A DNA stretch of 31,564 nt, from the sequence record NC_070902.1. One strand, written 5' to 3'. The stretch comes from Escherichia phage 11W. Position 1 is the stretch's first letter, and each line of letters begins with the position of its first letter. This document shows positions 15,152-31,564 of the stretch, piece after piece. The notes beneath the pieces were generated by a model. The model was not told where the DNA came from. It worked only from the letters and a program-made list of their open reading frames with translations, and ran no database searches. Made by a program: the position numbers and the translations under genes.

Positions 15152-16609
15152 GTTGTATGAGCTTACATATCTATTGCGTAGAGTAAAGCATAATCTGACA
15201 GTCCGCTCTGTGCCAGAAGCNGANNNTAGCAGGTGCCAGATGCATCTGTTATTCTTCATTGAATTGAGCAGTATCCTTAACAGGAACTCTGAATACATAA
15301 ATGAAGATGAAAAACATGTCTGAAGTGTTGACCCAAGAAAAGCTTATTTTTGTTGCTNNCCAGAGACTAANNNNACTNNNGAAGNNNNNGANNTATTNNN
15401 NNTTTGANATNAAGGNNCGNTNTGTTNACNAAGCNNCGNNNNAAANANATTNNNCTGGNNNGCTNAGTTCGCAGTTTGATNNTNGCNGCAATGNTTTGTT
15501 TCATGTATCGGAAANNATATNNNNNNNTTTATNCTGCGNAATNATCGTATTCTGATGNTGNAANNNNGAGGCTGCAGATGGANNNNNNNNANTANNNGTC
15601 AGANNGACTAANACTNTTGGGAGTNTGNNATCGNTNNNNAATNTTCACNGCCATNCNCGCTNNTNACTTTTNNTGNNTNNCAANNNNNNGNATNTNTTNN
15701 NNCTNTGANGAANNNNNNNNNNNNNNNNNNNNNNNNNGTNANTCGNNGCTGATTTTNTTGATNTCAACGAGCCTNNNNTNTGNNCCNTNAATTGTCNNNN
15801 NNAANNATTANNNGNGCCTNGNNAGCAGATTGCTGTCANCCTGAGAGTAGCGNAAGGTGATGAAAAAACATGNGTTTGATTANCTTTCTTCTGCAACCAT
15901 TAAGGAATGGCAATGATATTCAACGCTAAGGNTGTTNTTATTCGATATGGACNNNNNNNNNNNGNNNNNNANNNNNNNNNNNNNNNACGCNNTTTATTNN
16001 NNNCNNNNNNTGANGNAAANCNNNNNAATNNNCNTNANTNGNNAGNGNNTNAAATCAACACGACAGAAGGCGTTACNGAAGNTNAAAAGNGNNGNNNNNN
16101 ACTNTTATCAAAACTGCCACCGGATAGCTGGNCACTTGNCANTTNNNNNGGCAGNANNNNNNNNGAANACNNNNNATGAAAGNGNNTAATCTNNCNAANN
16201 NNNNGCTTNAACNCNATAGNAATGGTGTGTGNNCAGAAGATGTAATGANNGNAAAACCAAGNNNNGAGGNTTACATCNAANNNTTGNTNANNCTGNTGAA
16301 TGCGTGGTATTNNNNNNNNNNNNNNNNNNNNNNNNNNNNNNNNNNNNNNNNNNNNNNNNNATCNNNNGAAGCCCATGNCGTCAGCGAACTGTCTGACATT
16401 ATGGTCAAGATTTCCGNAGAACGTTTCANATNNANTNNNATNTGATNTNTGGTTAATCACGTTACACAATACGCATCAATGGACGCTGAGTAGTTCGCGA
16501 GTTTTAAACTTCCAACGTCCGCTTTTCGCTCCAAGCAGACTGTCAGATTTGATAGCGTTTTGGCTATGTAAATTGTCAGTCGGAAAATGAGTGAATACAA
16601 ATCAGGACA
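15152..16609. other. Variable cargo hotspot at the P2 Z/fun position; AT-rich and heavily N-masked, content unresolved
   Basis: About 1.46 kb between G and the terminator before FI. Dense interspersed N from about 15360 to 16445. Readable plus-strand fragments (MKMKNMSEVLTQEKLIFVA at 15301; MAMIFNAK at 15907; EAH.VSELSDIMVKIS.ERF near 16370) are not recognisable to me. Confidence 0.6.
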
Positions 16610-26897: not shown

Positions 26898-27169
26898 GTA
26901 TTCGTATTGAAATTGGCGAACGTTATGTCGTTACCAGTGACAGCTTTCAGTTTATTCTCCACGAGAAAAAGAGAGCTGAAAGCGGTAAAAACGCCGGTCA
27001 GGAATGGCTGGCGGTGGTTGGTTATTACCCGAAATTAAGCCAGCTCGTTTCCGGCCTGATGCATCACGATATTCTGACCGGAAGCGCAAAGTCTTTTGCT
27101 GATTTAAACGCGCAGGTTGAGCAACTCAGCAAGCGTTGTTCAGAGGCTTTTGGCTCATATGGCCGTTAA
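26894..27169 (+). CDS. Early hypothetical protein (P2 orf83 position)
   Basis: 91 aa, overlaps the preceding stop and the A start. Confidence 0.6.
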   Translation: MSIRIEIGERYVVTSDSFQFILHEKKRAESGKNAGQEWLAVVGYYPKLSQLVSGLMHHDILTGSAKSFADLNAQVEQLSKRCSEAFGSYGR

Positions 27170-29438
27170 AGCCTCCGGGCGTTTTGTCCCTCCGTCAGCA
27201 TTTGCCGCAGGCACCGGTAAGACGTTTACCGGTGCTTATGCATGGAACGCGCCACGCGAGGCCGTCGGGCGCGAAAGACCCCTTACACGTGACGAGATGC
27301 GTCAGGTGCAAGGTGTTTTATCCACGATTAACCGCCTGCCTTACTTTTTGCGCTCGCTGTTTACTTCACGCTATGACTACATCCGGCGCAATAAAAGCCC
27401 GGTGCACGGGTTTTATTTCCTCACATCCACTTTTCAGCGTCGTTTATGGCCGCGCATTGAGCGTGTGAATCAGCGCCATGAAATGAACACCGACGCGTCG
27501 TTGCTGTTTCTGGCAGAGCGTGATCACTATGCGCGCCTGCCGGGAATGAATGACAAGGAGCTGAAAAAGTTTGCCGCCCGTATCTCATCGCAGCTTTTCA
27601 TGATGTATGAGGAACTCAGCGATGCCTGGGTGGATGCGCATGGCGAAAAAGAATCACTGTTTACGGATGAGGCTCAGGATCACCTGTATGGTCATGTTGC
27701 TGGCGCTGCACGAGCTTTCAATATTTCCCCTCTCTACTGGAAAAAATACCGTAAAAGACAGATGACCACGAGGCAGGCATATTCTGCCATTGCCCGTCTG
27801 TTTAACGATGAGTGGTGGACTCATCAGCTTAAAGGCCAGCGTATGCGCTGGCATGAAGCGTTACTGATAGCTGTCGGGGAGGTCAATAAAGACCGTTCTC
27901 CTTATGCCAGTAAACACGCCATTCGTGATGTGCGTGCGCGCCGCCAGGCAAATCTGGAATTTCTTAAATCGTGTGACCTTGAAAACAGGGAAACCGGCGA
28001 GCGCATCGACCTTATCAGTAAGGTGATGGGCAGTATTTCTAATCCTGAAATTCGCCGGATGGAGCTGATGAACACCATTGCCGGTATTGAGCGTTACGCC
28101 GCTGCAGAGGGTGATGTGGGGATGTTTATCACGCTGACCGCGCCGTCAAAGTATCACCCGACACGTCAGGTAGGAAAAGGCGAAAGTAAAACCGTGCAGC
28201 TTAATCACGGCTGGAACGATGAGGCATTTAATCCAAAGGATGCGCAGCGTTATCTCTGCCGTATCTGGAGCCTGATGCGCACGGCATTCAAGGATAATGA
28301 TTTACAGGTCTACGGTTTGCGTGTCGTCGAGCCACACCACGACGGAACGCCGCACTGGCATATGATGCTTTTTTGTAATTCACGCCAGCGTAACCAGATT
28401 ATCGAAATCATGCGTCGCTATGCGCTCAAAGAGGATGGCGACGAAAGAGGAGCCGCGCGAAACCGTTTTCAGGCAAAACACCTTAACCGGGGCGGTGCTG
28501 CGGGATATATCGCGAAATACATTTCAAAAAACATCGACGGCTATGCACTGGATGGTCAGCTCGATAACGACACCGGCAGGCCGCTGAAAGACACTGCAGC
28601 GGCTGTTACCGCATGGGCGTCAACGTGGCGCATCCCGCAATTTAAAACGGTTGGCCTGCCGACAATGGGGGCTTACCGTGAACTACGCAAATTGCCGCGC
28701 GGCGTCAGCATTGCTGATGAGTTTGACGAGCGCGTCGAGGCTGCACGCGCCGCCGCAGACAGTGGTGATTTTGCGTTGTATATCAGCGCGCAGGGTGGGG
28801 CAAATGTCCCGCGCGATTGTCAGACTGTCAGAGTCGCCCGTAGCCCGTCGGATGAAGTTAACGAGTACGAGGAAGAAGTCGAGAGAGTGGTCGGCATTTA
28901 CGCGCCGCATCTCGGCGCGCGTCATATTCATATCACCAGAACGACGGACTGGCGCATTGTGCCGAAAGTTCCGGTCGTTGAGCCTTTGACTTTAAAAAGC
29001 GGCATCGCCGCGCCTCGGAGTCCTGTCAATAACTGTGGAAAGCTCACCAGTGGTGATACTTCGTTACCGGCTCCCACACCTTCTGAACACGCCGCAGCAG
29101 TGCTTAATCTGGTTGATGACGGTGTTATCGAATGGAATGACCCGGAGGTCGTGAGGGTGCTCAGGGGCGCATTAAAACACGGCCTGAGAACACCAAATCG
29201 TCAGCAAAGAAACGGAAGCCCGTTAAAACCACATGAAATTGCACCATCGGCCAGGCTGACCCGGCCGGAACGATTGCAAATTACCCGTATCCGCGTTGAC
29301 CTTGCTCAGAACGGTATCAGGCCTCAGCGATGGGAGCTTGAGGCGCTGGCGCGTGGGGCTACCATAACATATGGCAGGAAGACGTTTATATATCCTACAA
29401 TCGATGTGTGTTTGGGATATTCTGCTTTTACAAAATGA
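27159..29438 (+). CDS. A: Rolling-circle replication initiator (P2 gpA, HUH endonuclease)
   Basis: 759 aa from the ATG at 27159 (MAVKASGRFVPPSAFAAGTGK). HUH motif TPHWHMMLF and tandem tyrosines YIAKYISKN. Last ~25 residues differ from what I recall of P2 A. Confidence 0.92.
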   Translation: MAVKASGRFVPPSAFAAGTGKTFTGAYAWNAPREAVGRERPLTRDEMRQVQGVLSTINRLPYFLRSLFTSRYDYIRRNKSPVHGFYFLTSTFQRRLWPRIERVNQRHEMNTDASLLFLAERDHYARLPGMNDKELKKFAARISSQLFMMYEELSDAWVDAHGEKESLFTDEAQDHLYGHVAGAARAFNISPLYWKKYRKRQMTTRQAYSAIARLFNDEWWTHQLKGQRMRWHEALLIAVGEVNKDRSPYASKHAIRDVRARRQANLEFLKSCDLENRETGERIDLISKVMGSISNPEIRRMELMNTIAGIERYAAAEGDVGMFITLTAPSKYHPTRQVGKGESKTVQLNHGWNDEAFNPKDAQRYLCRIWSLMRTAFKDNDLQVYGLRVVEPHHDGTPHWHMMLFCNSRQRNQIIEIMRRYALKEDGDERGAARNRFQAKHLNRGGAAGYIAKYISKNIDGYALDGQLDNDTGRPLKDTAAAVTAWASTWRIPQFKTVGLPTMGAYRELRKLPRGVSIADEFDERVEAARAAADSGDFALYISAQGGANVPRDCQTVRVARSPSDEVNEYEEEVERVVGIYAPHLGARHIHITRTTDWRIVPKVPVVEPLTLKSGIAAPRSPVNNCGKLTSGDTSLPAPTPSEHAAAVLNLVDDGVIEWNDPEVVRVLRGALKHGLRTPNRQQRNGSPLKPHEIAPSARLTRPERLQITRIRVDLAQNGIRPQRWELEALARGATITYGRKTFIYPTIDVCLGYSAFTK

Positions 29439-29492
29439 ATGGTGTCGGAACATAATATTTTCAGGTGTTCAAAGAGTTTGTTCTGATGTTCT

Positions 29493-29520
29493 TGCTATTT
29501 TTGTTTCTTTTGATGAAAAT
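29493..29520 (+). promoter_or_regulatory. Candidate sigma70 promoter for the hotspot membrane-protein gene
   Basis: ttgcta, 16-nt spacer, gaaaat; about 35 nt upstream of the ATG at 29554. Confidence 0.3.
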
Positions 29521-29553
29521 GGCGTCTTTAAAATTGGTTAAAAGGTGTGTTGT

Positions 29554-30042
29554 ATGGATGGTTTATGGGAAAAAATATCGTCTTATAATATATTTAACAA
29601 TCTCTTTCCCGGTGCTTTGTTTATTTATTTGTTTGAGCGGGCAACCAATGTGATATTATCCACAGATGATGTTGTTAAGAATGTGGTACTTTACTATTTT
29701 ACGGGGATAATTATCGGAAGGATTGGGTCTATTGTTTTTGAGCCTGTGTTGAAATTTTTGGGGCTGGTAAAATTTGTTCCATATGAGGAATATATCTCAG
29801 CATGTAGAAAGGATAATAAAATAGAGCTTCTTCAAGAAACTGCAAATATGTATAGGACGTTATTCTCTATGTCCTTGGTTTTTTTGTTTTCTTTGTTTTT
29901 TGTTTCGTTTGTAGTTGGTGGTGATTACATGGCGTCGAAATGGATTTCATTGTTTTTGATTTTTGTTTTTATTGTGTCGTACGTTAAGCAAATTAAGTTT
30001 ATTACATTAAGAGTGAGTAAGGCTAATAATAAGCTGCCCTAA
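29554..30042 (+). CDS. Small multi-pass membrane protein, unknown function (hotspot cargo, tin position)
   Basis: 162 aa from the ATG at 29554 (AAAGG RBS). About four hydrophobic segments (FPGALFIYLF; VVLYYFTGIIIGRIGSIVF; LFSMSLVFLFSLFFVSFVVGG; WISLFLIFVFIVSYV). AT-rich codons. Confidence 0.6.
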   Translation: MDGLWEKISSYNIFNNLFPGALFIYLFERATNVILSTDDVVKNVVLYYFTGIIIGRIGSIVFEPVLKFLGLVKFVPYEEYISACRKDNKIELLQETANMYRTLFSMSLVFLFSLFFVSFVVGGDYMASKWISLFLIFVFIVSYVKQIKFITLRVSKANNKLP

Positions 30043-30050
30043 GGCAGCTT
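30031..30050. terminator. Hairpin between convergent hotspot genes (candidate bidirectional terminator)
   Basis: Perfect 8-bp stem aagctgcc/ggcagctt with loop ctaa, overlapping the stop of the membrane-protein gene and 7 nt from the MBL gene stop. Confidence 0.5.
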
Positions 30051-30056
30051 AACGAA

Positions 30057-31142
30057 TTATTCTTCAGTCTTATAACTCCTTGCGTATGAGCGTGGGGTGA
30101 CTGCAGTCCAGCCATCTCTGGCGGGGGCATTACTAGAATGGCGTTTATTGGTGCCTTCTGTGGCGACTACTTTGGCTCCACGCCTTGTAAAAGCATTAAT
30201 GACCGCTTGATGAGGGTGTTTATCGGAATCCGGTGCGCATGATATAAATGCACAAACACCACTTCTTCCTCCTTCGCTTACAATATTTCCAACGAGCTTA
30301 TTTAGCACCGCTGGACCGATGTTTCTCCTGCTTCCATGGTGGGGCACTTGAATAAATGATAATGAGTTATTATTTATATGATCAGCAGCCATATCTAATG
30401 CAGTTATTCCTGCATCACCTGTAAATACTAGTGTTTTATTGTCAATTTCAATTTTTAATATAACGCTTGAATTGTTTTGTGCAGTAGTTGTGTCCTTGTC
30501 ATCAATTCCCTCATCAGAGAACCAATCAGCAATATACTCGACTTGTTCTTTGGCTTTCTCAAAAAAGTAGTTATATGCATCTGTACCACTGGTTGCAGTT
30601 GTTTCTGCTTTTTCAGGCATTCTTGCAAAATCGGGGATTAATGTTTCATAGTATGCTTGTGTTGGTCCAATAACAACCAGTTTAGAATTGTCCCAAGTCC
30701 TGCCTTGAAAAGGCTCCTTAATTTCTATTCCTTTTTTTTTCGCTGATTTGACGGCATCATAGGCTTTTTGTAGATTATCTTGTATACGTCTGGCAATACT
30801 TGCATCTGTTATCCTTCCATCAGCAAATTCCTGCGCGAGATTTTCATTATGCTCCCAAGGCTGGTGAATCCAGAACTCTTTGACTTCCGCATTCTCAATC
30901 ACATGCTCAAGGCCGCCAGCATGGTCGCTATCTGGATGCGTGGATATGAGTAAGTCAATAGTATTTGTATGATAGTATTTCTGTAAATGTTCAATTATTT
31001 GTGGACCAGTGCTTGCGTACCCCGCATCAATTACGACAACTTTTTGCTCTGCTCTTGTTCCGTGGAGGTTGCCCCATCTTATGCAGATAGCATCTCCACT
31101 TTTTTTTTCTCCAACTGCTAAGAAATCAACTTCGTAACCCAT
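30057..31142 (-). CDS. Metallo-beta-lactamase-fold hydrolase, putative nuclease (hotspot cargo, old position)
   Basis: 361 aa. MBL-fold motifs VVVIDAGY, THPDSDHAGG (variant of THxHxDHxGG), TGDAG and VPHHGSRRN. AT-rich. Not part of the P2 backbone as I know it. Confidence 0.7.
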   Translation of the reverse strand: MGYEVDFLAVGEKKSGDAICIRWGNLHGTRAEQKVVVIDAGYASTGPQIIEHLQKYYHTNTIDLLISTHPDSDHAGGLEHVIENAEVKEFWIHQPWEHNENLAQEFADGRITDASIARRIQDNLQKAYDAVKSAKKKGIEIKEPFQGRTWDNSKLVVIGPTQAYYETLIPDFARMPEKAETTATSGTDAYNYFFEKAKEQVEYIADWFSDEGIDDKDTTTAQNNSSVILKIEIDNKTLVFTGDAGITALDMAADHINNNSLSFIQVPHHGSRRNIGPAVLNKLVGNIVSEGGRSGVCAFISCAPDSDKHPHQAVINAFTRRGAKVVATEGTNKRHSSNAPARDGWTAVTPRSYARSYKTEE

Positions 31143-31564
31143 TCTTGTGCCCTTCTGTAGTTTTCAACTTTATGTAAGTGTTGTACGCCAAAGTAGTGCA
31201 GGACTTGATTAGGCAATCAAAGACCTTTAAAACAATATCAGGATGCATAAATATTCGTGTCTAGATCAATAGATTAGATCGAGTTTTTGATAATCAATTT
31301 GCGCCTGCTTCTTGATAACCGTTGTTAGTGTAAATTTTGCGCAATGTAATTGGCAAATCACTGCGATATGAGTTGCGTGCCAGCCAGCTTTAATATGCAG
31401 ACTTTGCTATATCTTTCTACACGATTTTTATTTTCAGATGTGCAAGCATTAGGCGCATTGTTTTGCATGCGTTGGAGCTGCTAGTTTAGATCGTGCTCCG
31501 TCAGAATAGGCGCGACACCATGGTGGTCATGCACCTGCATTAAAACCGACCCATGAAGCGGGCG
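31143..31564. other. AT-rich non-coding right end: presumed promoter of the MBL gene and right cos-proximal sequence
   Basis: No ORF over 60 aa. Sits upstream of the minus-strand MBL gene. The window ends where the left cos sequence would resume on circularisation. Confidence 0.5.

Follow-up and report, generated by a model that had tools for sequence, protein, structure and literature searches.

What is the function of the two genes that Escherichia phage 11W carries between its replication gene A and cos, at the position held in phage P2 by tin and old? The question was approached with the 31,564-nucleotide sequence NC_070902.1 (the window), and in particular with its last part, positions 29439-31564, which is free of ambiguous bases (N) and encodes a protein of 361 amino acids (aa) with a metallo-beta-lactamase (MBL) fold and a membrane protein of 162 aa. 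The pair is probably defensive, and with a rough probability of 0.55 we consider it to be a latent, membrane-associated deoxyribonuclease (DNase) module of anti-phage defence. It should be stated at once that the locus is not newly discovered, the exact cassette being listed already in two public resources; mechanistically, it represents an uncharacterised form of the known defence-MBL-nuclease kind, in which a membrane partner replaces the protease. New here are the assignment of the MBL protein to the ComEC type, its tie to protease-activated defence DNases in a locus without a protease, the survey that sorted the membrane partners into four families, a natural fusion of both proteins, and the adjacency to restriction-modification (R-M) genes.

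The only family returned by the Pfam scan of the 361-aa protein was Lactamase_B (E = 2.4e-13), and its sequence relatives in the Protein Data Bank (PDB) were MBL domains of ComEC only (9ic4, 30bt). In the alignment to ComEC, HPDSDH (residues 69-74) stands opposite HPDADH and VPHHGS (266-271) opposite VPHHGS. Both motifs, H69-P-D71-S-D73-H74 and P267-H268-H269-G-S, are invariant in 110 homologues of 47-91% identity, and so are all residues of the metal site (D39, H69, D71, D73, H74, H93, D243, H268, H269 and H309). The AlphaFold2 model (predicted local distance difference test score, pLDDT, 93.5) shows a disordered loop at 184-194; its best fold match in the PDB was the ComEC nuclease domain 9ic4 (E = 2e-14, target-normalised TM-score 0.76), followed by the phosphorylcholine esterase Pce (E = 7e-11), Cas14 and RNase J, with the phosphodiesterase 7dck matching as well. 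An earlier reading made from the letters and open reading frames (ORFs) only, hereafter the sequence-only reading, had assigned this protein to the MBL fold and found it reminiscent of ComEC/Rec2, and the profile and structure searches agree with it on both counts. It had also regarded HPDSDH as a departure from the canonical motif, which has to be corrected, since this is the normal form of the ComEC type.

The same protein matched, in PADLOC, the models of MBLs from known defence systems: LmuA-type (E = 5.6e-28), DRT-associated (3.9e-21) and Avs1a (1.3e-15). By sequence it is thus related to the defence MBL DNases that are activated by proteases. Studies of 2025 described the MBLs of Hachiman, Avs, Lamassu, DRT and canu as ComEC-like, Zn-dependent DNases, which are kept inactive by two inserted loops until a partner protease cuts both, upon which the active enzyme causes abortive infection (PMC12799240; 10.1101/2025.09.03.673762; PMC12642450); a clade of membrane-paired MBLs is not mentioned in these three papers. 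Relative to ComEC, the 11W protein has about 70 additional residues between 86 and 219, the disordered loop included, and the protease-gated MBLs have their additional sequence in the same part of the fold. Judged from alignment and model, this stretch is a possible gate, and by analogy with the relatives the protein is a predicted DNase.

Membership in any of the curated families next to it was rejected, as all scores fell far below the cut-offs. These were 50.9 bits for TIGR00361 (cut-off 190) and 27.7 bits for NF008580 (cut-off 969), both compared on the ComEC side; 62.7 bits for the NCBIfam Avs1a equivalog (cut-off 420); and 33.8 bits for 6A-MBL, NF058524 (cut-off 220), a system reported in a review to incorporate ubiquitin-related elements. 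The RefSeq name “ComEC/Rec2 family competence protein” overstates the relationship. We also discarded the label “tail protein” (phrog_7043 and the annotation of NC_049389), as the match maps to positions 619-901 of a composite-looking profile of 1077 positions and a role in the tail is otherwise unsupported.

The membrane protein was modelled by AlphaFold2 with pLDDT 89 as four long helices (11-31, 40-68, 89-120 and 126-157) and one short helix (77-86). Transmembrane (TM) segments were assigned from these helices together with the hydropathy peaks, which concur, and the roughly four segments counted in the sequence-only reading were so recovered. Its family, made up of 1,227 clusters at 50% identity, contains standalone proteins only, with lengths of about 160-200 aa. 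The protein matched the PADLOC model PDC-M48A, had no family in the Pfam scan, no protease domain in the Pfam and PADLOC scans and nothing significant in the PDB fold search with its model (best E = 0.28). Its RefSeq name, “phosphohistidine phosphatase”, has no supporting domain and is probably an annotation error.

To what extent these two genes belong together was assessed in 80 loci, taken from genomes of many phyla, that encode MBL homologues of full length (40-71% identity); ORFs in these loci were called with a simple longest-ORF heuristic. In 74 of the 80, profile detection showed the MBL gene to be directly adjoined by the gene of a small membrane protein. The partners fell into four families, namely C1 (38 loci), C0b (25), C10 (6) and C7, the family of 11W (5), and all four have the same layout of two TM helices, a soluble loop and two further TM helices. 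Conversely, three out of three distant members of the 11W membrane family, one of them from Firmicutes, adjoin MBLs of the PDC-M48B type. Furthermore, in a metagenome-assembled genome of Acidobacteriota (L044:5833-7845) the MBL and a four-TM partner of the C0b type are fused into one protein of 670 aa with the MBL at the N-terminus, which would place the N-terminus of the partner in the cytoplasm, together with the MBL, itself devoid of a signal peptide. In a rough, approximate neighbour-joining tree the partners of type C7 were scattered over several separate MBL clades, a pattern suggestive of partner exchange. The genes are co-directional and nearly abutting in most non-enterobacterial loci; their convergent order is specific to the enterobacterial P2-like lineage, where phage contigs keep it, with a gap of 14-34 bp, across 54-100% MBL identity. 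The partnership between the MBL and a small membrane protein is near-obligate across many phyla and, as far as gene order and sequence can tell, the pair very probably constitutes a functional unit.

These data leave hardly any room for the notion of two unrelated accessory genes that became neighbours by chance. The convergent order, the separate candidate promoters and the unequal GC content (0.325 in the membrane gene versus 0.413 in the MBL gene) would fit it, but it is effectively refuted by the conservation data, that is, by the adjacency seen from both genes, the natural fusion and the gap retained between the convergent genes in diverged phages.

The sequence-only reading had called the pair unrecognised, and in this it was mistaken. 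Table S5 of Rousset et al. 2022 (PMC9122126), on the cargo of the P2 hotspot, contains both proteins under their exact accessions (WP_021533448 and WP_021533447) with the entry “hypothetical + Lactamase_B”, and both match the PADLOC candidate system PDC-M48. The MBL protein matched the PDC-M48B model PDLC04676 with E = 6.4e-99 (residues 3-355 on positions 5-353 of 357) and the membrane protein the PDC-M48A model PDLC04670 with E = 6.4e-49 (residues 1-159 on positions 1-162 of 164); the two genes are adjacent, as PDC-M48 demands, with 14 nucleotides between the stop codons, here in convergent orientation. At the sequence level there is no difference between these entries and the 11W pair, which is the same thing; the entries are silent on function, mechanism and phenotype. 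The PDC systems go back to Payne et al. 2024 (10.1101/2024.01.29.577857), who predicted them from genes located inside BREX, DISARM and type I R-M loci. Assignment of both proteins to a known defence family of matching architecture had been named in the sequence-only reading as evidence that would speak against a novel module; such a family was formally found in PDC-M48, which is itself only a prediction. Among the four partner families, the A-component models of PADLOC cover only C7, and C1, C0b and C10 have no Pfam or PADLOC model.

Variations of the gene order were also seen. E. coli 4/1-1 carries a variant of the locus with 73% identity, in which an additional gene of 145 aa (WP_001752367; L083:5826-6263), a possible third component, is located upstream of that for the MBL; Pfam and PADLOC gave no match to it, and it figures in the Rousset table within “hypothetical + hypothetical + Lactamase_B”. 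Six other loci (L049, L056 and L057, at about 7.6-8.6 or 6.3-7.3 kb, and L050, L075 and L071) have a second, shorter MBL-fold gene of about 310-370 aa with the motifs HPDMDH and PHHGR, matching the PADLOC PDC-M48B models 04673/04675. It stands immediately behind either the membrane partner, which results in the order MBL, membrane protein, MBL, or the first MBL.

The arrangement of the locus in 11W and its edges are as follows, with coordinates of the window.

27117..29438, plus strand: gene A, replication endonuclease, part of the backbone, which delimits the hotspot on the left (phage D8 annotation: replication protein GpA; E. coli 118UI annotation: replication endonuclease).
29427..29456, plus strand: promoter-like site upstream of the membrane gene, TTTACA-18-CATAAT, a candidate from the consensus scan with 10/12 matches.
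29554..30042, plus strand: gene of the four-helix inner-membrane protein, 162 aa (PADLOC PDC-M48A, phrog_11864, WP_021533448.1).
30030..30051, no strand assigned: 9-bp hairpin common to both convergent genes, a possible bidirectional terminator.
30057..31142, minus strand: gene of the ComEC-type MBL-fold metallo-hydrolase, 361 aa, a predicted DNase (PADLOC PDC-M48B, WP_021533447.1).
31143..31522, minus strand: non-coding stretch upstream of the MBL gene, variable cargo, with no ORF of at least 45 aa and no Rfam match.
31263-31234 and 31356-31327, minus strand: weak promoter-like sites upstream of the MBL gene, from the consensus scan with 9/12 matches each.
31523..31564, no strand assigned: conserved cos-proximal backbone, right edge of the hotspot.

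According to the ORF list, the membrane-protein gene and the MBL gene are the only ones between A and cos, just as the sequence-only reading had placed them, and RefSeq has the same two coding sequences. The membrane-protein frame opens with GTG at 29545, and its 162 aa are counted from the ATG that RefSeq also uses as the start. The stretch 31523..31564 is the sole part of the query that matches P2-like phages with other cargo, and these matches fall at the ends of their records. On the far side of cos, prophage copies have the portal gene Q, so that the locus corresponds to the A-cos-Q hotspot, where P2 has tin and old. Against a GC content of 0.531 in gene A and about 0.52 in the whole window, both genes are clearly AT-richer, as already remarked from the sequence, and the horizontal acquisition proposed on that ground is supported, the pair being acquired cargo of this hotspot. 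The Rfam scan of the whole region 29439-31564 returned no match. A 17-nucleotide direct repeat (29456-29472 and 31429-31445; two copies, 15/17 identical) was considered as the border of a cassette and rejected as probably fortuitous, because its right copy sits inside the variable region and the backbone resumes only at about 31523.

Between the genes, the perfect 8-bp stem noticed in the sequence-only reading (30031-30038/30043-30050) is indeed there and reaches 9 bp with one more T-A pair (30030/30051). The loop, CTAA, contains the TAA stop of the membrane gene, and the region has a local fold of -16.4 kcal/mol (z = -3.4 versus shuffles). The stem persists in the E. coli variant of 73% identity; in Huaxiibacter its sequence differs with the pairing retained. 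The number of promoter-like sites in the region does not exceed the shuffle expectation, and that at 29427..29456 is accordingly listed as a candidate only.

Context favours defence. The DNA of the locus is 100% identical to that of Peduovirus P24E6b and of phages D8 and 12W, and it was found in 45 of 5,426 complete E. coli genomes, 22 times in near-identical form and 23 times as the 73% variant; most P2-like phages have no such pair. In IMG/VR the convergent C7 pair was present in 17 of 37 phage loci, between gpA and Q wherever both were detectable; this holds even for P2-like phages with gpA only 32-42% identical. One P2-like contig has a version of the C0b type at the A-Q position. In the 80 genome loci, type I R-M genes were located within 6 kb in 26 (raw count), HsdS made up 12 of the 125 genes immediately flanking the pair, and the PADLOC families most frequent in the immediate flanks were type I R-M specificity subunits, not proteases; further neighbours were AAA_15/21 ATPases, PDC-M16 and VWA+PP2C. 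Altogether this amounts to strong guilt by association, and to association only. From the proposal of an undescribed exclusion or abortive-infection module made in the sequence-only reading, a defence role remains the best fit to the context, and the word undescribed has to be dropped in view of PDC-M48 and Table S5.

In the group of Rheinheimera/Alishewanella (L006-L008, L011, L018 and L041), the MBL and its C1 partner are followed by the conserved genes C6 (about 180 aa) and C11 (about 1,180 aa) and often preceded by PDC-M16A/B or by an AAA_15/21 ATPase with a 296-aa partner. This arrangement may represent a conserved defence island of larger size, or else a system of several genes.

As to the mechanism, we propose that the pair is a prophage-carried two-gene anti-phage module (PDC-M48) in which the 361-aa protein would be the effector, a cytoplasmic, metal-dependent nuclease of the ComEC type, most likely a DNase and latent in uninfected cells. 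The 162-aa protein would be its four-helix partner in the inner membrane, with both termini and the central loop probably cytoplasmic; as an obligate partner it would tether or control the nuclease and so fill the place held by the protease in the MBL modules of Hachiman, Avs, Lamassu and DRT. Upon infection, a membrane-linked cue, for which DNA injection, membrane depolarisation or a phage membrane protein are candidates, would release or activate the nuclease, which would degrade DNA and thereby put an end to phage production. In the P2-like phages of enterobacteria, transcription of both genes would be convergent, from separate promoters towards their common 3' hairpin. A more specific version may be entertained tentatively and is rather doubtful as it stands: a four-helix inner-membrane protein docks the defence ComEC-like DNase and gates it on a membrane event, independently of any protease, the four partner families having converged on the same MBL or diverged beyond recognition.

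Known systems resemble this scheme in part. Protease-gated modules (Hachiman HamM, Avs1/2/4, Lamassu, DRT and canu) likewise have a separate gene for a ComEC-like MBL with an intact metal site, an adjoining partner for its control and a defence setting, whereas the 11W locus is devoid of a trypsin-like, caspase or subtilisin protease and has the small four-helix membrane protein as the partner. With ComEC/Rec2 (9ic4, 30bt) the 11W protein shares HPDxDH and VPHHGS, and in both cases the MBL nuclease is, or in 11W would be, membrane-associated; however, ComEC unites its MBL domain with an OB domain and a multi-pass competence channel in one polypeptide of about 660-800 aa, while in 11W a soluble MBL of 361 aa and a separate 4-TM partner are encoded. 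Rst_Hydrolase-3Tm (the DefenseFinder name for “HAD-like hydrolase + transmembrane protein”), from the hotspot of P4 satellites and validated against T7 (Rousset et al. 2022, PMC9122126), is similarly a hydrolase and a membrane protein encoded by two genes in the cos-proximal hotspot of the P2/P4 phage-satellite pair; identity with it was rejected, as that hydrolase is HAD-like and P4-borne and the one of 11W is MBL-fold with no HAD match in Pfam. P2 tin and old share the position between A and cos with the 11W pair and no homology, and the PADLOC search with both proteins at E <= 1 gave no match to Old, Tin or another named exclusion gene.

Several points weigh against the proposed module. All 145 single- and multi-gene PDC candidates of Payne et al. 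2024 are predictions (10.1101/2024.01.29.577857), both 11W accessions are absent from the table of systems evaluated for defence in Rousset et al. 2022 (PMC9122126), and no experimental test of the pair was found in open-access papers and bioRxiv. The protease-gated relatives need their protease and there is none in the 11W locus, the fold match second to ComEC is to a phosphorylcholine esterase, and nuclease activity is predicted from relatives. Comparison of the four partner families with hhalign gave no detectable similarity (probabilities <5%), and in view of this missing mutual homology it is not certain that they share one job. Finally, two-gene systems do not usually have the convergent order seen in enterobacteria, with which translational coupling is impossible, and the hairpin, which has no T-tract, was not called by the terminator scan.

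Some of these points lend themselves to other explanations. With the roles reversed, the membrane protein would kill by pore formation or depolarisation and the MBL would act as a sensor or regulator that might, for instance, bind or nick phage DNA. Small multi-TM proteins are the usual effectors of defence (Rousset et al. 2022, PMC9122126), four dissimilar partners exchanged around a constant MBL look like a constant sensor with swappable effectors, and the membrane protein has a weak similarity to a holin family (PF23778, E = 0.049, well below the cut-off). We nevertheless consider this explanation unlikely: in all relatives that have been characterised, the effector DNase is the MBL (PMC12799240; 10.1101/2025.09.03.673762; PMC12642450), an invariant full metal site would not be expected in a pure sensor, and the Pfam, PADLOC and PDB fold searches detected no relation of the membrane proteins to known pore formers. 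The match to Pce, along with that to 7dck, may also mean that the MBL is a phosphodiesterase positioned by its partner to act at the membrane on a substrate other than DNA, such as a lipid head group, phosphocholine or a nucleotide signal. Phospholipid-cleaving enzymes with the MBL fold exist, and the obligate membrane partner and the fusion would bring the enzyme to the membrane. This, too, appears improbable, as HPDxDH, PHHGS and the best matches in sequence and in fold all point specifically to the ComEC type, and the closest defence relatives cleaved only DNA, and not beta-lactam, choline ester or RNA.

A role outside defence would serve the element itself, either through addiction, with a toxin-antitoxin pair stabilising the prophage, or through DNA processing at the membrane in the phage cycle. 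About one quarter of the P2 hotspot cargo is non-defensive (e.g. partition systems, toxins), and a latent nuclease with a controlling partner formally resembles a toxin-antitoxin pair. We give this little credence, since chromosomes commonly have the module remote from any P2 phage, in the vicinity of defence genes such as those of type I R-M, and its absence from most P2-like phages indicates that the phage cycle can do without it. The latent, membrane-associated DNase module of defence is the reading that we retain.

It should be added that 11W has cargo at the second hotspot of P2 as well, flanked by the genes of the tail fibre and the tail sheath (15201-16500), where 386 of the 389 N of the window are located. 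The ORFs 15404-15844 and 15900-16469 appeared there as AT-rich cargo (GC 0.26-0.28) with no match in Pfam, PADLOC, PHROG or homologue searches; we rejected it as an artefact, since both features are products of the N. The readable parts have 93-95% identity to a cargo of a HAD-family hydrolase and a NUDIX hydrolase that Peduovirus P24C9, phage 10W and about 800 E. coli genomes carry in this position. The scattered N suggest a consensus or degraded sequence.

For phage 11W, the pair makes the cargo at the tin/old position a candidate for superinfection exclusion. If it defends, a protease-free branch would be added to the latent MBL DNase effectors, and the membrane would become a site either of the sensing of infection or of the action of the nuclease. 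Since the models of defence-finding tools know only one of the four partner families, many instances have probably been missed in annotation. Should control by gating at the membrane prove true, such pairs, most of which have C1, C0b or C10 partners and are in no catalogue, would represent a widespread class of membrane-sensing nuclease immunity, of which PDC-M48, as presently modelled, would be a minority branch.

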